From IMG/VR virus record IMGVR_UViG_2609459795_000004: DNA of 21,250 bases. One strand, given 5' to 3'. The translations under genes were made by a program, and so were the position numbers. Source of the DNA: a virus. Taxonomy: Duplodnaviria; Heunggongvirae; Uroviricota; Caudoviricetes. The notes beneath the pieces are model-generated. The model saw nothing but the letters and a program-made list of their open reading frames with translations, was not told where the DNA came from and did not search any database. Shown in pieces: positions 232 through 21,250 of the stretch (its first letter is position 1; every line of letters begins with the position of its first letter).

Positions 232-831
232 TCAGAATTTATAACCGACACCCACGATGAAACCGTCAGTGCGCCAGTCACCACTGCCGGAGCCTTCATA
301 AGCAATATCAATGGCCACGGATTCGGTCGGGTTAAACTGCACGCCAGCCCCCCACGCCAGAGACGTGTTGCTGTGGCGACCGTCATCACTTCCGGTCAGC
401 ACATCGTGCTTTTTCCCCTTGTTGTCAGTTACGCGAAGATAATCCCCGGAGAAAGTCGACACACGGCTGTAAGCCACACCCGCCATCGCATACGCGCTGA
501 ACCATTCATTTACGCGCACAGACGGCCCCGCCATTACGCTGAACCAGCGGTTACGAACGGAATCTTCATGCCAGCGGGTATCGCTGTAACGGGTCAGCTG
601 GCGATTCTTGTCTCCTGCATAGCTGAATGACGTCACCAGCCCCAGTGTGTCCGTAAACTCATAACGGTATTTCACGTTAATCCCGTTCAGATCATCACTG
701 CCGGGGACGTTCGTCGAGGCATGAAGATACCCCGCGCTCAGCGTGGACTGATGTTCAGACGCCCATGCAGGCGCACCGGATACGGCCAGACAAATGGCTG
801 CGGACAAAATTGCTGCACAAACTTTACGCAT
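232..831 (-). CDS. lom: Lom outer-membrane protein (Ail/Lom family beta-barrel)
   Basis: 199-aa ORF with ATG at 829-831 and an upstream GAGG ribosome-binding site. N-terminal signal peptide MRKVCAAILSAAICLAVSGAPAWA, and the protein ends in the aromatic residue typical of outer-membrane beta-barrels (...GVGYKF). Sits between J and stf as in lambda. Confidence 0.88.
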   Translation of the reverse strand: MRKVCAAILSAAICLAVSGAPAWASEHQSTLSAGYLHASTNVPGSDDLNGINVKYRYEFTDTLGLVTSFSYAGDKNRQLTRYSDTRWHEDSVRNRWFSVMAGPSVRVNEWFSAYAMAGVAYSRVSTFSGDYLRVTDNKGKKHDVLTGSDDGRHSNTSLAWGAGVQFNPTESVAIDIAYEGSGSGDWRTDGFIVGVGYKF

Positions 832-901: not shown

Positions 902-3900
902 TCAACGAATACTGATGCCGGAAGCGGCTTTTTTGGTCACAATCACCGTACAGTCGGTGATATTGCCTGCCCCCTGATTGCCTTTCTGGAAAATCTTAAA
1001 CTCCAGAGTGACGCTTCCCCTGCCACTCGGCATATCAATAACTGCACTGTAACTACCGGGAATGGCCCCTTTAGTTTCTCTGGATGCGATTAATACGCCG
1101 TTTTTGCGAACTTCAAAACCATAACCCGTGTATCGCGTGCCTCCCGGGTTATTTCCGCTCCCCGGATCGTCATACGCTATACCGTTAAAAATAATGGGCG
1201 GAATAATAATCTGGCGGTCAAAGTTATGATCATCGCTGATGGTGACTGTAACCGTACCGTTTGGTGTTTCCGTGTTACCCCACGTACCGACTTTTTTCGG
1301 GAAGGCTTTTGATACAGCTTTAACGAAATCTCCTCTGACCTGGGTCGCCTCCAGCATGCCCTTAATCGTACAGTTCTGGTTAATCGTGACATTGTTGAGC
1401 GTTCCTGAGTTCGCATTCACACTGCCACTGATATCCGCATTTTTCGCCGTCAGTCTCCCGTCTGATGTCAGGGAAAATGCCGGAGGATTACCGCCGCTGG
1501 TAATGGTGGGGGCCGTCAGGCGTTTCAGGAACACTTCATTCATGAATATCTGATCGCCCTGACCAACAAACATCGGTTTTGTGTTGCCATTTGCAGGATT
1601 AATCATCGCAATCCTGTCTGCCGCCAGCAGCACCTGACTCTGCATGCCGTCGGGGGTGTTCTCAATACCGACACCGATACCCGCAATATAAAGGCGTCCG
1701 TCCTGCATCTGCTGCAGCTTCACAGCCCACATGCTGTTCAGATTATTATTTGTATCAACCTGAACCTTCTGTATCTGCTGAATTGCCGCACTCTGGTCTT
1801 CCAGTTTCTTATTGACGGTCTGCGTGATTTCATTGCTGACATCCTTAATGGACGTCCTGATTTCAGCCAGGTCAGGCGCAAGCTGACCGTTATCAATCTG
1901 CGTCCACAGCTCCTGAGCCAGATGGGTTTTCCCTATCTCGCCTTTGAAAAAATCCAGATAGCCGGATGCATCATCACTCGGCTGACCAACAGCCTCCACG
2001 AATGCCGATTTGCCAACGGTGTTCACACTGCGAACGTAAAAATAATAATCATAGCCCGGCCTGATATTGATACTGGCGGCTATCCAGTACAGCCCCGTGC
2101 CAAGGTAGCGGGCTGTGGTTTCAACCTGCCTGATATCGGTAATCCGCTTTTCCGAGAACCAGAACTCAAACTGTACCGTCGGGTCATAAACGGCAAGATG
2201 CGGCGTGGCGGTTATCTGAAAATAGCCCGGCGTCAGCTCAATCCTCGACGGTGCTGCCGGTGCGGCAATCCGGAACGATACCGACGCCGGATCTCCCTGC
2301 TGCCCCCACGCATTTACCGCCCGGACTGTCAGCCTGTAGTTCCCCAGCGCCAGTTGCGTGAAGCGGTATGTGGTTTCCGTCGTCCGGGCCGTGCTGACCA
2401 GCCGCTCACTGCCGTCGTCCGCTGTTACGGTCAGACGGAGCAGGAAGCTCACGCCCTTCACCACCTTCGGTGTGTCCCAGCGCGCCAGCACCTGATATTC
2501 CCCGCTGTCTGCAGTGACTTCTGCGGTCAGGTGCTGCACCGCTGGCGGCGTGACACCGTTCACCGTGCCACTCTGTTCGCCGTCAAAGTGCGCCCCGTTA
2601 TCCACGATGGCCTCTTTTTCCGGCACATGCTGCACGGCGGTGATGGCATACGTACCGTCATCGTTCTCACGGATACTCACACAGCGGAACAGGCGCTGGC
2701 GCAGCGTCGGCAGCTTCAGCCCCCACACGCTGTATTCGGCAACGCCGTCAGGAACACGGCTCACTTTCACCTTAAGTCCGTCGGTGACGGACTGAACCTC
2801 CACGCTGACCGGATTACCACTTCCGTCAACCAGGCTTATCAGCGTGGTACCGGAGGATGGCAGCGTGATTTCACGGTCGAGCGTCAGCGTCCGGGTCTGG
2901 CTGTTCACCGCCAGCACGCGACCACCGGTGCTGATACCGGCATAGTCATCATCGCAGATTTCAATGACATCGCCCGGTACATGGCGAAGCCCTTCAGCAC
3001 CCACGCTGAAATCCACGGTCTGCGTCTCCAGCAGTTCCGTTTTAATCAGCCACAGCCCGGCGCGGTGTGCCTGCCCCCGGCTGGTACAGCCAAAGGCATC
3101 CATCTTCGTGACATTACGACCGTAACGGGCAATGGCCTGCGTATCTTCAACAAGCTCTGTCGCCGTCTCCCAGCCGTTGTCCGGGTCAATCCAGTTCACC
3201 TCAACGGCATTATGGCGGTCCTTCAGGGCGCTGAAGCTGTAGCGGAACGGCGCGCCATCATCCGGCATCACCACATTACTGCGGTTATAGGTCCACACCT
3301 TATCCGACGGTCGGTCCTGCACGAACGTCAGCGTCTGCCAGTTCCATACCGGCATACAGCGCATCGCCGAGCAGAAATCACTGAGCACATCCCACGCCTT
3401 GCGCTGTGTGGTCAGGTACGCATTACAGGTGATGCGCGGCTCCGTGCCGCCAAAGCCGTCCGGCACTGACTGGTCGCAGTACTGGCCGATGACATACAGC
3501 GCCCATTTGTCCACATCCGCCGCACCAAGACGTTTCCCCATGCCGTAGCGTGGATGGGTCAGCATATCCCACAGACACCAGGCCATGTTATTGCTGTATG
3601 CTGGCTTAAACGTTCCGTCCCAGATACCGCTGTATTGCCGAGTCTGCGGGTTATAGTTCGACGGCACCTGCAGAATACGCCCGCGCAGATGATAATTACG
3701 GCTCACCTGCTGGCTGCCGAACTGCTCCGAATCCACCTGTACGCCGACCAGTGCCGTGTTCGGGTAGCACTGTTTCACATCGATGATTTCGGTGTATGAC
3801 GACCAGAGCGTTTTGTTCTGCAGCTGGTCTGTGGTGCTGTCCGGCGTCATCCTGCGCATCCGGATATTGAACGGGCGCGGCGGCAGGTTACCCACCACCA

Positions 3901-4399
3901 CCGATGCTAGATACTGTGAGGTGGTTTTGCCTTTAATGGTGATGTCTTTTTCCGTCACCCAGCCACCATTACGCTGTATCTGAACCAGCAGGCGGACTTC
4001 CGACGGATTCCGGTCCCCCTTTGAGGTGGTTTCCACCAGTGCCTGCACACCGAAGGTAAAGCGCAGACGGTCGATGTTTGCCGACGTGATGGTCCGGGTA
4101 ATCGGCGTGTCGTACTTCACTTCCGTACCCAGCACCGTCTCGGAGCCGGAGGATTCAAATCCCTCCGGCGGTGTCTGCTCCTGCTCACCGGCCCGGAACA
4201 CCACCGTGACGCCGGATATATTGGTATTCCCCTCACTGTCCAGCACCGGCGTACTGTTCAGCAGCACGCTTTTTAATCCATCCACCGGACCTTCAACCGG
4301 CCCTTCGCTGATGGCATCGATCACACTCAGCAGCTGCGTGGACTTCAGGTTGTCCTTCGCTTCGCGCGGGGTATGCCCCTTACTGCTGCCTTTACCCAT
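902..4399 (-). CDS. J: Tail tip / central tail fibre protein J (host-specificity protein), 1165 aa
   Basis: ATG at 4397-4399 with an upstream GGAG. The N-terminal two thirds ([34 protein letters not shown]...) match lambda gpJ as I recall it. The C-terminal third differs and the protein is 1165 aa against about 1132 aa in lambda. Confidence 0.9.
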
Positions 4400-5101: not shown

Positions 5102-5742
5102 TTGTCGGTGTACCTCTCTCGTTTGCTCAGTTGTTCAGGAATATGGTGCAGCAGCTCGCTGTCACCACAGTAAATGGCGGCATGATTCGGCACCGATGAA
5201 CCAAAACAGCACAGCAGCACATCGCCCGGCTGCGCCGCTGACAACGGCACCTGATACAGCCCTGTGGCCTCCAGATTATCCAGATAGAGATTCTGACCGT
5301 TACGCCACCAGTCATCCCCGCGATGAAAATCCGGCATCTCAATTCCCGCCAGATGGTAAGCGTCCCGGAACAGCGTGTAACAGTCCGTTACCCCGTGCTC
5401 AAAGCGCCGCCCGGTGAGATGCGGCACACAGCGGAACTTATGAATCGTCCCCCGGCAGACCAGCCACCACGGCAAATCACTCTGCACCTGCAGCCGCCGG
5501 TCGGCCTCACTCAGCCAGGGCAGACCACCGGGGTGGCTGTGGACCAGCGCCACAATCTCACCCTGCATTTCTGCCTGCAGCCAGTCTTCCGGCGACATAC
5601 GGAAATACGCCTCCGGCTCACCGGAGATATTCACGCAGGGAAAATATCTTTCCCCCTCCGGCGTGCTTACCACGAAGCCGCACGACTCCGCTGGCGCACA
5701 TCGCCGGGCGTGCGCCAGAATCGCTGATTCTGTCTGTGTCAT
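4999..5742 (-). CDS. K: Tail tip assembly protein K (MPN/JAMM plus NlpC/P60 type), called from the ATG 4 nt after the L stop; lambda's canonical 199-aa form would start at 5598
   Basis: Contains the JAMM-like motif HSHPGGLPWLSEAD and a C-terminal region with the Cys/His pattern of NlpC/P60 peptidases. The frame is open upstream of the canonical Met (MSPEDWLQAE...). ATG at 5740-5742 (MTQTESAIL...) follows the L stop (5747-5749) by 4 nt. The track's 5784 start is a TTG inside L and is unlikely. Confidence 0.78.
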   Translation of the reverse strand: MTQTESAILAHARRCAPAESCGFVVSTPEGERYFPCVNISGEPEAYFRMSPEDWLQAEMQGEIVALVHSHPGGLPWLSEADRRLQVQSDLPWWLVCRGTIHKFRCVPHLTGRRFEHGVTDCYTLFRDAYHLAGIEMPDFHRGDDWWRNGQNLYLDNLEATGLYQVPLSAAQPGDVLLCCFGSSVPNHAAIYCGDSELLHHIPEQLSKRERYTDKWQRRTHSLWRHRAWHASAFTGIYNDLAAASTFE

Positions 5743-5746
5743 GGGT

Positions 5747-6445
5747 TTACTGCGAAAGTTTGTTAATGGAAAGGAAGCCGCCAAAGTTGCCGACGTTATT
5801 GCGGAACTTACAACCGCTCAGGCATTTGCTGCATTTATCCTTCGTGATATCGGACGTTGGCTGGTCATATTCATCCGCGACCGCCGGACCGTGATAACCG
5901 CACTCATCGCCGCGATAGGTCCAGGTGCAGGTGTGGGCCAGCATGATACGTCCCGGAAAAACAGCGCCGTCCGTTTCCGTCGGCGTGGCCAGTACAAAAG
6001 AGGCACTGACCGCGCTCAGTTCGCTGCACTGCTCGATGCGCCAGCGGCTGATCACCTCCTGCTCCGGATCGGCGTAACTGTTTCCGTTGACGAAGTTCAC
6101 CGCATCCAGAAAACGGGCGTAAACCTTACGCCGGACCACCGTTCCGCCGACCAGACTCTGCATATCTTCCGCCATCCAGGTGACCATACCGTACAGGTTA
6201 GAAACCGTCAGCGTGGGGCGCGTACTGGTGCCTTTGCCATTCAGTTCAAAACCGCTCCCCTGAATGGGATACGGCTGATACTGTCGCCCCTGCCAGGTGA
6301 CCGGCTCACCTTTTTCGTTCTGCTCATTACAGAAAAAATAACGTTCTCCACCGACCTCTGTCAGGTCGATTTCCCAGAGCACCACGCTGGCCGACTGCTC
6401 CGCACGGGTGCATTCATTCAGTGTTTCCTGCCGGATATCCTGCAT
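5747..6445 (-). CDS. L: Tail tip assembly protein L
   Basis: 232 aa, the same length as lambda gpL, and the sequence matches my recollection of it (MQDIRQETLNECTRAEQSASVVLWEIDLTEVGGERYFF...). Its start overlaps the M stop. Confidence 0.92.
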   Translation of the reverse strand: MQDIRQETLNECTRAEQSASVVLWEIDLTEVGGERYFFCNEQNEKGEPVTWQGRQYQPYPIQGSGFELNGKGTSTRPTLTVSNLYGMVTWMAEDMQSLVGGTVVRRKVYARFLDAVNFVNGNSYADPEQEVISRWRIEQCSELSAVSASFVLATPTETDGAVFPGRIMLAHTCTWTYRGDECGYHGPAVADEYDQPTSDITKDKCSKCLSGCKFRNNVGNFGGFLSINKLSQ

Positions 6446-6774
6446 CAGTTCACCACCTGTTCAAACTCTGCGCTGAACTCAACACGCAGCATACTGACCC
6501 GCGACGACCATTTTGCGCAGGTCACCTTTATCTGCCGCCACTCATAAGGCGGCGTCCACAGAAAGGATTTCCAGCCCCCGTGCTCTTCCAGAAACGACTC
6601 CAGTACCGTGGCCTCCTCACGGGGGACAGAAAGCGTCACGCTGTACGTTTTCAGGTTGGCATTCAGCCCGGCAGGCGCTCGCTGAGAATAGCCATCACCA
6701 AAGCGCACCTTTCTTACAGAAGGGACCGAAGCCACATCCATACCGGGTTTCACTTTCCAGCGGAAGGTCTTCAT
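6445..6774 (-). CDS. M: Tail tip protein M
   Basis: 109 aa, MKTFRWKVKPGMDVASVPSVRKVRFGDGYSQRAP..., matching lambda gpM in sequence and length. Its start overlaps the H stop by 4 nt. Confidence 0.92.
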   Translation of the reverse strand: MKTFRWKVKPGMDVASVPSVRKVRFGDGYSQRAPAGLNANLKTYSVTLSVPREEATVLESFLEEHGGWKSFLWTPPYEWRQIKVTCAKWSSRVSMLRVEFSAEFEQVVN

Positions 6775-9332
6775 CGTCCACCTCCGGAGAACAGGCCACC
6801 ATCACGCATCTGTGTCTGAATTTCATCACGGGCACCCTTGCGGGCCATGTCATACACCGCCTTCAGAGCAGCCGGACCTATCTGCCCGTTCGTGCCGTCG
6901 TTGTTAATCACCACATGGTTATTCTGCTCAAACGTCCCGGACGCCTGCGACCGGCTGTCTGCCATGCTGCCCGGTGTACCGACATAACCGCCGGTGGCAT
7001 AGCCGCGCATCAGCCGGTAAAGATTCCCCACGCCAATCCGGCTGGTTGCCTCCTTCGTGAAGACAAACTCACCACGGTGAACAATCCCCGCTGGCTCATA
7101 TTTGCCGCCGGTTCCCGTAAATCCTCCGGTTGCAAAATGGAATTTCGCCGCAGCGGCCTGAATGGCTGTACCGCCTGACGCGGATGCGCCGCCACCAACA
7201 GCCCCGCCAATGGCGCTGCCGATACTCCCGACAATCCCCACCATTGCCTGCTTAAGCAGAATTTCTGTCATCATGGACAGCACGGAGCGGGTGAAGCTGC
7301 GCCAGTTCTGTTCACTGCCGGTCAGCATCGCCGCCATATTCTGCGCAATACCATCAAAGGTCTGCGTGGCAGCACTTTTAACCTGCGACATACTGTCCGT
7401 GGCACTCTCTTTCCACTCGCTCCAGCCGGACCTGAGGCCTGCCATCCAGCTCCCGCGAAGCAGGTCTTCAGCCGCCCAGGTCTTTTTCTGCTCTGACATG
7501 ACGTTATTCAGCGCCAGAGGATTATCGCCATACTGTTCCTTCAGGCGCTGTTCCGTGGCTTCCCGTTCTGCCTGCCGGTCAGTCAGCCCCCGGCTTTTCG
7601 CATCAATAGCGGCCCGTTTTGCCCGTTGCTGCTGTGCGAATTTATCCGCCTGCTGCGCCAGCGCGTTCAGGCGCTCCTGATACGTAACCTTGTCGCCAAG
7701 TGCAGCCAACTGGCGTTTATACTCCAGCGTCTCATCTTTATGCGCCAGCAGGGATTTCTCCTGTGCAGACAGCTGGCGACGTTGCGCCGCCTCCTCCAGT
7801 ACCGCGAACTGACTCTCCGCCTTCCACAAATCCCGGCGCTGCTGGCTGATTTTCTCATTTGCTCCGGCATGCTTCTCCAGCGTCCGGAGTTCAGCCTGAA
7901 GCGTCAGCAGGGCAGCATGAGCACTGTCTTCCTGACGATCGCCCGCAGACACCTTCACGCCGGACTGTTTCGGCTTTTTCAGCGTCGCTTCATAGTCCTT
8001 TTTCGCCGCCGCCATCAGCGTGTTGTAATCTGCCTGCAGGATTTTCCCGTCTTTCAGTGCCTTATTCAGTTCTTCCTGACGGGCGGTATATTTCTCCAGC
8101 GGCGTCTGCAGGCGTTCGTAAGCCTTCTGCGTCTCTTCGGTGTATTTCAGCCGTGACGCTTCGGTATCGCTCTGCTGCTGCGCATTTTTGTCCTGTTGAC
8201 TCTGCTGCTCAGCCTTCTTTCGGGCGGCTTCAAGCGCAAGACGGGCCTTTTCACGATCATCCCAGTAACGCGCCCGCGCTTCATCGTTAACAAAATAATC
8301 ATCCTTGCGCAGATTCCAGATGTCGTCTGCTTTCTTAAACGCAGCCTCTGCCTTAATCAGCATCTCCTGCGCGGTATCAGGACGACCAATATCCAGCACC
8401 GCATCCCACATGGATTTGAATGCCCGCGCTGTCCTGTCTGCCCAGGTCTCCAGCGTGCCCATGTTCTCTTTCAGGCGGCGGGTCTGGTCATCAAACCCTT
8501 TCGTTGCGGCCTCGTTCGCCGCCTGCAATGCCCCGGCTTCATCGCCGGAACGCTGCAACTGAGCAACATACGCAATCTGCTCCGCCGTCACGTTATGGAA
8601 CTGGCGTGCCATCGCCGTCAGCCCCGACGTCGGGTCTGTGGTCAGCTTCCCGAAGGCTTCAGCGACCTTGTCCACCTCCACGCCGGATGCAGAGGAGAAA
8701 CGCGCCACACTCTGGCTGATGGACGCAATCTGAGCCTCACCGCTTACCCCCGCCTTAACCAGTGCGCTGAGTGACTCGCTGGTCTGGTTAAACGTCAGCC
8801 CTGCCGCCTGCCCGGCTCTGGACAGGACCAGCATACGATCTGCCGTCAGTCCCGCCTGATTGCCGGAAAGGACCAGCGTTTTGTTGAAATCGGACAGGGT
8901 TGAGTTACCCTGATACCAGGCATACGCCAGCGCACCGGTCGCCACCGCCAGCGAGGTGGCCCCGACCATCGGCAGGGTGATCGCACCGGCAAGCCCCCGG
9001 AACATGGGGATCATCCCGCCGAAGGAGTCCTTAACCTGACCACCCTGTTGCAGCAGGATCAGCCACGGGCTTTGCCCGCCTGCAAGCTGCGTGGCCACGT
9101 CGGTGAACTGTGCAGGCAGCATACGCATGGCGGCTTTATACTGCCCGACGGAAATCCCCGCTTTCTGTGCAGCCAGCGCCTGTCGGCTCAGCGACTGTTC
9201 AACGACTGCCGCTGTTTTTTTCGCATCAGTTTCCGTACCGGAAAAATGACGCCTGACTCTGGCCATCTGCTCGTCAAATCTGGCCGCATCCAGACTTAAA
9301 TCAACGACCAGATCGCCTACCGGTTCAGCCAT
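6771..9332 (-). CDS. H: Tail tape-measure protein H
   Basis: 853 aa, the same length as lambda gpH; matches my recollection along its length (MAEPVGDLVVDLSLDAARFDEQMARVRRHF... ending ...MRDGGLFSGGGR). ATG at 9330-9332. Confidence 0.93.
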   Translation of the reverse strand: MAEPVGDLVVDLSLDAARFDEQMARVRRHFSGTETDAKKTAAVVEQSLSRQALAAQKAGISVGQYKAAMRMLPAQFTDVATQLAGGQSPWLILLQQGGQVKDSFGGMIPMFRGLAGAITLPMVGATSLAVATGALAYAWYQGNSTLSDFNKTLVLSGNQAGLTADRMLVLSRAGQAAGLTFNQTSESLSALVKAGVSGEAQIASISQSVARFSSASGVEVDKVAEAFGKLTTDPTSGLTAMARQFHNVTAEQIAYVAQLQRSGDEAGALQAANEAATKGFDDQTRRLKENMGTLETWADRTARAFKSMWDAVLDIGRPDTAQEMLIKAEAAFKKADDIWNLRKDDYFVNDEARARYWDDREKARLALEAARKKAEQQSQQDKNAQQQSDTEASRLKYTEETQKAYERLQTPLEKYTARQEELNKALKDGKILQADYNTLMAAAKKDYEATLKKPKQSGVKVSAGDRQEDSAHAALLTLQAELRTLEKHAGANEKISQQRRDLWKAESQFAVLEEAAQRRQLSAQEKSLLAHKDETLEYKRQLAALGDKVTYQERLNALAQQADKFAQQQRAKRAAIDAKSRGLTDRQAEREATEQRLKEQYGDNPLALNNVMSEQKKTWAAEDLLRGSWMAGLRSGWSEWKESATDSMSQVKSAATQTFDGIAQNMAAMLTGSEQNWRSFTRSVLSMMTEILLKQAMVGIVGSIGSAIGGAVGGGASASGGTAIQAAAAKFHFATGGFTGTGGKYEPAGIVHRGEFVFTKEATSRIGVGNLYRLMRGYATGGYVGTPGSMADSRSQASGTFEQNNHVVINNDGTNGQIGPAALKAVYDMARKGARDEIQTQMRDGGLFSGGGR

Positions 9333-15453: not shown

Positions 15454-19134
<3,681 letters not shown>

Positions 19135-19160
<26 letters not shown>

Positions 19161-19680
19161 TCAGCAACCCCGGTATCAGTTCATCCAGCGCGGCTGCTTT
19201 GTTCATGGCTTTGATGATATCCCGTTTCAGGAAATCAACATGTCGGTTTTCCAGTTCCGGAAAACGCCGCTGCACCGACAGGGGGATCCCGTCGAGAATA
19301 CTGGCAATTTCACCTGCGATCCGCGACAGCACGAAAGTACAGAATGCGGTTTCCACCACTTCAGCGGAGTCTCTGGCATTTTTCAGCTCCTGTGCGTCGG
19401 CCTGCGCACGCGTAAGTCGATGGCGTTCGTACTCAATAGTCCCTGGCTGGAGATCTGTCTCGCTGGCCTGCCGCAGTTCTTCAACTTCCCGGCGCAGCTT
19501 TTCGTTCTCAATTTCAGCATCCCTTTCGGCATACCATTTTATGACGGCGGCAGAGTCATAAAGCACCTCATTACCCTTGCCACCGCCTCGCAGAACGGGC
19601 ATTCCCTGTTCCTGCCAGTTCTGAATGGTACGGATACTCGCACCGAAAATGTCAGCCAGCTGCTTTTTGTTGACTTCCAT
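19135..19680 (-). CDS. nu1: Terminase small subunit Nu1
   Basis: 181 aa, MEVNKKQLADIFGASIRTIQNWQEQGMPVLRGGGKGNEVLYDSAAVIKWYAERD..., matching lambda gpNu1, with the N-terminal winged helix-turn-helix that binds cosB. ATG at 19678-19680. Confidence 0.93.
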
Positions 19681-19689
19681 TGTTCATTC

Positions 19690-19857
19690 CACGGACAAAA
19701 ACAGAGAAAGGAAACGACAGAGGCCCAAAAGCTCGCTTTCAGCACCTGTCGTTTCCTTTCTTTTCAGAGGGTATTTTAAATAAAAACATTAAGTTATGAC
19801 GAAGAAGAACGGAAACGCCTTAAACCGGAAAATTTTCATAAATAGCGAAAACCCGCG
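19690..19857 (-). other. cosB, the terminase (gpNu1) binding region with R1, R2 and R3 elements and an intervening AT-rich IHF-type site
   Basis: Three copies of the GGAAACG core sit in the arrangement I recall for lambda R1/R2/R3: AAAGGAAACGACAG (about 19709-19722), its inverse CTGTCGTTTCCTTT (about 19746-19759), and CGGAAACGCC (about 19810-19819). An AT-rich block at about 19775-19800 lies between R2 and R3. The region is the reverse complement of the lambda left-end sequence as I recall it. Confidence 0.8.
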
Positions 19858-19869
19858 AGGTCGCCGCCC
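19858..19869. other. cosN, the 12-nt cohesive-end sequence (terminase nicking site) at the junction of the mature-genome left and right ends
   Basis: Top strand AGGTCGCCGCCC is the reverse complement of GGGCGGCGACCT, the lambda cohesive end. The flanking 19870-19900 (CGTAACCTGTCGGATCGCCGGAAAGGACCCG) is the reverse complement of the lambda right-end terminus as I recall it, which should include cosQ. Confidence 0.85.
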
Positions 19870-20068
19870 CGTAACCTGTCGGATCGCCGGAAAGGACCCG
19901 CAAAATGATAATAATTATCATCTACATGTCACAACGTGCATCTACGCCATCAAACCACGTCAAATAATCAATTATGACGCAGGTATCGTATTAATTGATC
20001 TGCATCAACTTAACGTAAAAACAACTTCAGACAATACAAATCAGTGACACTGAATACAGGGCAACCTC

Positions 20069-20302
20069 ATGTCAACGAAGAACAGAACCCGCAGAACAAC
20101 AACCCGCAACATCCGCTTTCCTAACCAAATGATTGAACAAATTAACATCGCTCTTGATCAAAAAGGGTCCGGGAATTTCTCAGCCTGGGTCATTGAAGCC
20201 TGCCGCCGGAGACTGTGCTCAGAAAAAAGAGTTTCTCCTGAAGCAAACAAAGAAAAGAGTGACATTACTGAATTGCTCAGAAAACAGGTCAGACCAGATT
20301 GA
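20069..20302 (+). CDS. Small basic hypothetical protein (77 aa), possibly a ribbon-helix-helix DNA-binding protein; accessory ORF just right of cos
   Basis: ATG at 20069-20071 with a 77-codon frame. The N-terminus is Arg/Thr-rich (MSTKNRTRRTTTRNIRFPNQMIEQINIALDQKGSGNFSAWVIEACRRRL), with a pattern of a short strand then two helices that suggests an Arc/CopG-like fold. The fold is my inference from the sequence. Weak ribosome-binding site. Confidence 0.5.
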   Translation: MSTKNRTRRTTTRNIRFPNQMIEQINIALDQKGSGNFSAWVIEACRRRLCSEKRVSPEANKEKSDITELLRKQVRPD

Positions 20303-20359
20303 AGCAATTTAGATAATCGTGCAGACTACGCCCCATCATATCACATGGAAGGTACTACA

Positions 20360-20770
20360 ATGGCTCAGGTTGCCATTTTTAAACAAATATTCGATAAAGT
20401 GCGAAATAATTTAAACTATCACTGGTTTTATTCTGAACTAAAACGTCACAATGTCTCACATTACATTTACTATTTAGCCACAGAGAATATTCATCTTGTT
20501 CTTGAAAACGATAATACGGTTTTAATAAAAGGACAGGGTAAGGTTGTAAATGTAAGATTTTCAAAAAATAAATGCCTTATAGAAGCCACCTTAAAAGGAT
20601 TCAAATCAGGAGAGTTATCATTTTACGAATACAGGAAAAATCTTGCTACAGCAGGGGTTTTCAGATGGATTACAAATATCCACGAAAACAAAAGGTATTA
20701 CTATACCTTTGATAATTCATTACTATTTACTGAGAACATTCAGAACACTACACAAATATTTCCGCACTAA
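20360..20770 (+). CDS. AT-rich hypothetical protein (136 aa), resembling the YbcV-type small prophage proteins found near the packaging genes of lambdoid prophages; function unknown
   Basis: ATG at 20360-20362 preceded by GGAAGG with a 7-nt spacer; the track's start at 20345 lacks a ribosome-binding site. The gene is visibly AT-rich and stands out from the GC-rich structural module. [45 protein letters not shown]... resembles E. coli DLP12 YbcV as I recall it. No signal peptide or transmembrane segment. Confidence 0.6.
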
Positions 20771-20848
20771 ATCATAACGTCCGGTTTCTTCCGCGCCAGA
20801 ACCGGACTCGCTGGCATGATGAAATATGTGTACTCGGTAACCCCGGTG

Positions 20849-21250
20849 GTAAGCGTAAAGCCAATGCCGTCTGTAACACCTGCTCCTTGCAGACTAAATT
20901 AGAGCTCCTTCTAAATTAGACGGAGTTCTATTGATGGATAAACCTACAGACTGGCGCTCCGGAACCCGCCGGATATTTTCTAATGAATTTAAACTTCATA
21001 TGGTTGAACTGGCTTCGAAACCAAATGCCAATGTTGCACAACTGGCCCGGGAACATGGCGTTGATAACAACCTGATTTTTAAATGGCTACGCCTCTGGCA
21101 AAGAGAAGGACGTATTTCTCGTAGAATGCCTCCAACTATTGTAGGCCCTACAGTATCACAATCTTTTCCGACCTCTCCGACTCTGGTTCCAGTGGAACTT
21201 ATCGACACCCCGCGCTGTGCTACAGATGCTCCTGCTCCGGAGGCATTATC
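20849..21250 (+). mobile_element. Probable insertion sequence (IS66-family-like), left end only, truncated by the window edge
   Basis: GTAAGCG at 20849-20855 matches the typical start of IS66-family terminal inverted repeats. About 85 bp downstream an ORF begins with an N-terminal helix-turn-helix of the kind found in IS accessory (OrfA/TnpA) proteins. The sharp boundary immediately after the phage accessory gene fits an insertion. Family assignment is from memory. Confidence 0.55.
20934..21250 (+). CDS. IS accessory protein (TnpA/OrfA-like, helix-turn-helix), 3'-truncated by the window end
   Basis: ATG at 20934-20936 and an open frame to the window end (105 codons, no stop): MDKPTDWRSGTRRIFSNEFKLHMVELASKPNANVAQLAREHGVDNNLIFKWLRLWQREGRISRR.... 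The pattern RxFSxEFK ... VAxLARxHGV ... LxxWxR is the N-terminal HTH signature of IS transposase OrfA proteins. Absent from the ORF track because it has no stop in the window. Confidence 0.6.
   Translation, partial: MDKPTDWRSGTRRIFSNEFKLHMVELASKPNANVAQLAREHGVDNNLIFKWLRLWQREGRISRRMPPTIVGPTVSQSFPTSPTLVPVELIDTPRCATDAPAPEAL

Follow-up and report, generated by a model that had tools for sequence, protein, structure and literature searches.

Insertion sequences of the IS66 family have inverted repeats that start with GTAAGCG, and the classic members encode TnpA and TnpB together with a DDE transposase (PMC12888890). ISEc43, an element of this family, is bordered by 8-bp direct repeats (PMC6531882). 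Here we analyze the left end of an ISEc43-type element that adjoins the accessory genes of a lambda-type prophage in a 21,250-nucleotide stretch of DNA, referred to below as the window, from the IMG/VR virus record IMGVR_UViG_2609459795_000004 (Caudoviricetes). In phage lambda, the late transcript starts at pR', passes through S, R, and Rz, and continues through the accessory region and cos into Nu1-A...J under Q antitermination, and the Q-modified polymerase ignores terminators. It is in the accessory region, between cos and the place where the lysis genes are found in relatives, that the window leaves phage DNA and enters the insertion sequence.

The host prophage and its accessory genes

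In the window lies the half of a lambda-type prophage that encodes morphogenesis; its late genes are read from the minus strand. The lom gene (232-831, minus strand; Ail_Lom) is a full-length outer-membrane accessory gene and appears intact, as does J (902-4399, minus strand), which encodes a tail-tip protein of 1164 amino acids with a lambda-type C-terminal receptor-binding domain. The open reading frames (ORFs) after J correspond in size and order to I, K, L, M, H, T, G, V, U, Z, FII, FI, E, D, C, B, W, A (17235-19160, minus strand), and Nu1 (19135-19680, minus strand) in relatives whose gene functions were assigned with Pfam. The exact 12-nt lambda cohesive end, GGGCGGCGACCT, is found on the minus strand at 19858-19869. 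This cosN lies about 180 bp upstream of Nu1, the same as in lambda, and about 980 bp from the insertion sequence. Thus, the locus has the Nu1-A-W-B-C-D-E...J-lom order, cosN upstream of Nu1, and accessory genes across cos that are found in lambda-type phages. Positions 1 to 20848 share 97 to 98% identity with the isolated phages Kati, PhiR42_1, PhiR49_1, and mEp332, and with prophages in more than 3000 complete Escherichia coli genomes.

Three ORFs are found on the plus strand around and beyond cos. The ORF spanning cosN (19796-20047, 83 amino acids) matches phrog_9395, a PHROG of unknown function that probably groups spurious ORF calls made across cos. It is followed by a YlcI/YnfO-family (DUF3950) accessory gene at 20069-20302 (PF13132, E value of 5e-21) and by a DUF1398 (YbcV/YdfO-like) accessory gene at 20360-20770 (PF07166, E value of 3e-43; alternative ATG at 20345), both of which are annotated by PGAP in relatives. 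As the original prediction had it, the latter gene is AT rich and stops at 20770: its GC content is 31%, compared with 57% in the late region, and its TAA codon occupies 20768-20770. The DUF1398/YbcV family is labeled "head protein" in PHROGs (phrog_413) and "putative envelope protein" in lambda records. The gene is AT rich, stands apart from the head operon, and is read from the other strand; these two labels look like unsupported annotation carried forward.

The IS66-family element and its junction with phage DNA

At 20849 the homology switches from phage to a multicopy element. The last phage-matched base is 20848 in all alignments with phages and prophages, and the motif GTAAGCG starts at the next base. 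Matches to the multicopy element in other contexts start between 20842 and 20849; the bases before 20849 are chance extension, and in an alignment of three independent contexts the common sequence starts exactly at GTAAGCG. The uninterrupted relative L002 (NZ_CP147038) reads ...GGTAACCCCGGTG and then TGCATCGTTTTTGATT, whereas the window reads ...GGTAACCCCGGTG and then GTAAGCGTAAAGCC. In a shorter view of the junction, ACCCCGGTG is followed by TGCATCG in the relative versus GTAAGCG in the window. This confirms the observation of an insertion sequence end abutting the phage accessory region, with a GTAAGCG-initiated terminus at 20849. The junction itself had no counterpart in the collections searched. 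Its exact 31-base pattern gave no match in GTDB (one genome per species), IMG/VR, or the JGI metagenomes, and megablast gave no match spanning it in 5426 complete E. coli genomes or in GenBank phages. Among prophages with the identical DUF1398 protein or the terminase large-subunit variant, none has this element at the window's site.

Positions 20849 to 21250 (plus strand) belong to an ISEc43-type insertion sequence of the IS66 family and represent its left 402 bp. They are identical at 401 of 402 bases to a complete copy in E. coli 214-4 (L013 3505-6045, corresponding to NZ_CP025840.1 2114256-2116796), with the sole mismatch at 21171. The complete copy is sited inside pstS, is 2541 bp long, contains tnpA, tnpB, and tnpC only, and is flanked by an 8-bp duplication, GATGGGAG. 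Its ends read GTAAGCGT...ACGCTTAC and thus begin and finish with GTAAGCG...CGCTTAC, the right terminus being ...GACGCTTAC. In the window, the left terminal inverted repeat spans 20849-20873 (plus strand; inner limit approximate). It starts with GTAAGCGT, the left end GTAAGCGTAAAGCC opening with the GTAAGCG typical of IS66 elements. The right end of the complete copy, ...ACGCTTAC, is an imperfect inverse of this repeat in which the first 8 bases are identical.

The proteins encoded downstream in near-identical complete copies are those of an IS66 element. TnpB matches PF05717 (E value of 3e-36) and scores above the cutoff of NF033819; TnpC matches PF03050 (E value of 8e-96) as well as zf-IS66, LZ_Tnp_IS66, and the C-terminal element, and scores above the cutoff of NF033517. 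PGAP names the latter protein "IS66-like element ISEc43 family transposase," and the name ISEc43 is taken here from this PGAP family label rather than from direct comparison with the ISfinder reference. The element was found at 2259 places, many of them partial matches, in 1638 of the 5426 complete E. coli genomes, with up to 23 per genome. The copies share 95 to 99.5% identity with the window and are located on both chromosomes and plasmids. Their flanks are unrelated, with IS256 and IS4 elements, pstS, and a phosphotriesterase-related gene among them. Within E. coli, this element is mobile and occurs in multiple copies.

From an ATG at 20934, an ORF of 105 codons can be read without a break to the window end (20934-21250, plus strand). 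We assign it, from Pfam and sequence identity, as the 5' part (105 of 144 codons) of tnpA, which encodes the IS66-family helix-turn-helix (HTH) accessory protein. It scores 42 bits with Pfam HTH_Tnp_1 (cutoff of 24 bits; E value of 1e-10) and is identical at 104 of 105 residues to WP_001309734.1, which precedes the IS66 genes tnpB and tnpC in L001 and in complete copies such as L013 and is 144 amino acids long at full length. The best NCBIfam matches are two IS66 TnpA models, both of which score under their curated cutoffs (62 bits versus a cutoff of 150 and 59 to 68 bits versus a cutoff of 74). The family assignment therefore rests on the identity to copies bearing tnpB and tnpC and not on the hidden Markov models alone. 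At 21171 the window has A instead of the G of the reference copies, which gives Thr in place of Ala at TnpA residue 80, a position in the linker that follows the HTH. Taken together, the match to complete copies with tnpA, tnpB, and tnpC and the published descriptions of IS66 elements show that the original prediction was correct in calling both an insertion sequence terminus and an OrfA-like HTH protein starting at 20934.

The leader between the inverted repeat and tnpA is 85 bp long. It contains two 10-bp direct repeats, CTAAATTAGA, at 20894-20903 and 20911-20920 (plus strand), 17 bp apart. Folding of 20849-20940 gives a leader hairpin with a z score of -3.4, and 0 of 200 shuffles were as stable. 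The direct repeats sit within this hairpin, in which the GGAG that precedes the tnpA ATG is paired. The hairpin may provide translational shielding against read-through transcripts, or the repeats may serve as TnpA binding sites.

The spacer at the insertion site and other insertions in it

The 78 bp between the DUF1398 gene and the element (20771-20848) are native phage spacer. They belong to the intergenic region 3' of the gene, which the element interrupts, and make up its left part. Except for one single-nucleotide polymorphism (SNP; T for C at 20834), the segment is identical in about 20 uninterrupted prophages (L002 to L012 and L015 to L023 were compared), and it can be aligned with lambda. 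It contains an 8-bp inverted repeat, GTCCGGTT at 20779-20786 and AACCGGAC at 20800-20807, enclosing a 13-nt loop. The repeat had been noticed in the original prediction, where the 78 bp were thought to be a possible remnant of the interrupted sequence. The repeat is indeed present. The remnant interpretation, whether as part of an interrupted gene or as an insertion sequence end, was rejected because the segment is identical in the uninterrupted relatives.

When the 78 bp are shuffled, a perfect inverted repeat of this kind arises in only 1.6% of cases. The repeat is kept in all uninterrupted relatives, with a modified form in lambda. Taken over its whole length, the 78-bp segment is no more stably folded than its shuffled versions (z scores of -0.25 and -0.68). 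The lambda hairpin at the same position differs by one-sided changes and a bulge and thus offers no clean covariation. An intrinsic terminator was rejected, as the scan made no call, a T-run is absent, and the folding energy of the segment is ordinary. The inverted repeat is a phage feature unrelated to the insertion sequence, and our best guess is that it forms a 3' stem-loop in the transcript of the DUF1398 accessory gene.

PGAP annotates nothing at the insertion position in relatives. In the gene calls of some relatives, an ORF that starts with ATGATG at 20816 is listed as a "hypothetical protein" of 54 amino acids. It is the sole ORF crossing the insertion point; in the window it is cut after codon 11 and runs into the insertion sequence as a 28-codon fusion (20816-20902). 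In three relatives (L005, L006, and L011), the frame of the 54-aa ORF is broken by a stop codon, the differences between relatives are mostly nonsynonymous, and a search for Pfam and PHROG family matches gave none. Disruption of a small gene was rejected on these grounds; with stops in three relatives and no family match, the ORF is treated as noncoding. The insertion point is most likely noncoding.

The last 8 bp of phage DNA, CCCCGGTG (20841-20848), are the predicted target site, by analogy with the 8-bp duplications of complete copies. By the same analogy, a second CCCCGGTG would be expected past the right end of the element, followed by TGCATCGTTTTTGATTATTCC, the rest of the spacer. In relatives, the spacer runs on for 0.2 to 0.5 kb. 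Beyond it come a variable accessory gene and then, on the late strand, Rz, R, and S. The accessory gene is bor in lambda and PhiR26_1, and GIY-YIG, KilA-N, or Rha in others; in yet others there is none and Rz follows directly. A lysis cassette and bor-type genes are thus the normal content of this region, as had been anticipated: lambda has the DUF1398 homologue, spacer, bor, Rz, R, and S, and the relatives are similar.

Three other prophages carry ISCro1-type IS66 elements in the spacer, located 74, 109, and 413 bp after the DUF1398 gene, compared with 78 bp in the window. The +74 insertion is in strain 64EVA (L014, CP138399; ~8310-8325) and has an 8-bp duplication, GTAACCCC; the +109 insertion is in APEC17 (L025, CP178203; ~4735) and has the 8-bp duplication TTATTCCC. 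The +413 insertion, in enterotoxigenic E. coli (ETEC) O25:H16 F5505-C1 (L024, CP024257; ~5039), has no duplication, its flanks being CATCAGTC versus CTCAGTTC, and is common to several ETEC O25 strains. Rz, R, and S are intact beyond the insertion sequence in all three. IS66-family elements have therefore reached the spacer independently at least four times, and two different elements are inserted only 4 bp apart.

We consider it possible, but rather doubtful, that GGTAACCCCGGTG is a preferred landing site of IS66-family transposases, with some feature of the local sequence or structure guiding the choice of target. About 35 bp separate the site from the conserved hairpin before it, the site is similar to the CCGGTTAC end of ISCro1, and two further ISCro1 insertions are found within 0.35 kb of the pair that is 4 bp apart. 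Otherwise, the region may be dispensable and simply tolerate insertions. To our knowledge, the target choice of IS66 elements is poorly characterized; if the preference is true, the recurrent hits in this spacer would be a small natural data set on it.

Other insertion sequences occur in a sister prophage with an identical terminase protein (ETEC-2265, L018, CP023346), which has an IS21-type element between Rz and the DUF1398 gene and an ISCro1-type IS66 element splitting the minor tail gene Z (the coordinates given for its two elements are 5573-7374 and 17546-20161). Prophages of this kind accumulate insertion sequences, and some of the copies are clearly inactivating.

Origin of the junction and comparison with known systems

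We judge it very probable that an ISEc43-type IS66 element transposed into a noncoding spacer of a lambda-type prophage. The visible 402 bp (20849-21250) would then comprise the left inverted repeat, the 85-bp leader, and the first 105 tnpA codons of the transposed element. Judging from complete copies, the element would continue through tnpA, tnpB, and the DDE transposase gene tnpC to a length of 2541 bp and end with CGCTTAC. From established knowledge of the family, TnpC together with TnpA and TnpB would cut at the GTAAGCG ends and make a staggered 8-bp cut in the target. The point of insertion would be 78 bp downstream of the DUF1398 gene, in the spacer between cos/Nu1 on one side and the bor/accessory/Rz-R-S region on the other.

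Among the other explanations, the one that deserves most attention, though we think it unlikely, is that the insertion sequence marks a rearrangement breakpoint. Deletion, inversion, or recombination between copies would then have eliminated the lysis and early regions or moved them elsewhere, leaving a truncated, defective prophage. The window ends 402 bp into the element with its right side unseen, and the element reaches at least 20 copies in some genomes, which would provide substrates for recombination. The missing 8-bp duplication in the ETEC O25:H16 prophage (CATCAGTC versus CTCAGTTC) points to a secondary rearrangement there, and IS66 elements in the spacer can thus accompany rearrangements. 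However, all structural genes and cosN are intact across 20.8 kb of phage DNA, and in all three analogues Rz, R, and S are retained on the far side of the element. The window's copy is, moreover, only 1 of 402 bases off active copies, which suggests a recent event. Slightly less likely still is that only a fragment is present, a truncated or nested nonfunctional remnant, for example one split by another insertion sequence. Such cases exist, as in L001 the tnpC of the same element is split by a second IS66-family element, and many of the 2259 places in E. coli are partial matches. The visible 402 bp, however, are near-identical to intact copies; in them the terminus is intact and the tnpA frame is open.

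We give very little weight to the idea that the junction is an assembly artifact, with a contig misjoined or collapsed at the repeated insertion sequence. It is true that the window stops within a multicopy repeat, a typical break of short-read assemblies, and that the junction has no second occurrence in the collections searched. The switch, however, falls exactly at the biological terminus GTAAGCG, where a chimeric join would fall only by coincidence, and a true insertion read into the element gives exactly such a pattern. We speculate that the sequence may stop here as the contig breaks in the repeated element. The least probable of all is a cargo-carrying derivative ("tIS66") that brought a passenger gene into the prophage, which the original prediction had raised as a possibility. 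Some IS66 members do carry passenger genes downstream of tnpC (PMC12888890). Against this, copies that match the visible part at 99.7% identity have a length of 2541 bp and no genes other than tnpA, tnpB, and tnpC.

Under the favored explanation, simple transposition into the spacer, the consequences for the phage would be modest. No conserved phage gene would be broken, and the element would lie in the region crossed by the Q-antiterminated late transcript, in antisense orientation to it. As the Q-modified polymerase ignores terminators, strong polarity from the insertion is not expected. The insertion would add about 2.5 kb to a genome of roughly 45 to 48 kb, which would bring it near the lambda packaging ceiling rather than clearly over it. 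With no conserved gene broken, the prophage is probably still complete, and the insertion is probably recent and close to neutral. The proposal that late or lysis functions were disrupted and the prophage made defective found no support, as cosN and every ORF for head, tail, and terminase proteins are intact within the window and the three analogues keep the lysis cassette. Within the window there is no sign that the prophage is defective; the lysis genes are located beyond the window end. The earlier interpretation is thus partly supported, being right about the identity and location of the insertion sequence and unsupported on gene disruption, remnant, and cargo.

The event appears to be an ordinary, recent, strain-specific insertion of a well-known element in a dispensable spacer. 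It matters little beyond annotation, where its message is that the late region of this prophage is not visibly damaged. As a strain-specific IS66/ISEc43-type insertion, it could act as an epidemiological marker.

Compared with ISEc43, the window's element has the same GTAAGCG terminus and leader, with 401 of 402 bases and 104 of 105 TnpA residues identical over the visible part. It differs by the SNP at 21171 (TnpA A80T) and by an insertion site that is absent from the collections searched. The ISCro1-type insertions belong to the same family and occupy the same spacer, that of 64EVA being only 4 bp from the window's site. In contrast to the window's element, however, they are about 2.7 kb long, only 64 to 76% identical to it in patches, and encode a TnpA of 173 to 225 amino acids and a TnpC of 523 amino acids. 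They are also in the opposite orientation, with the tnpC end adjoining the DUF1398 gene. The right-end region of lambda has the same succession of Nu1, cos, small ORFs, DUF1398 homologue, spacer, bor, and Rz-R-S, with a spacer and hairpin that can be aligned with those described here, but its identity in this segment is about 84% and it has no insertion sequence at this position.
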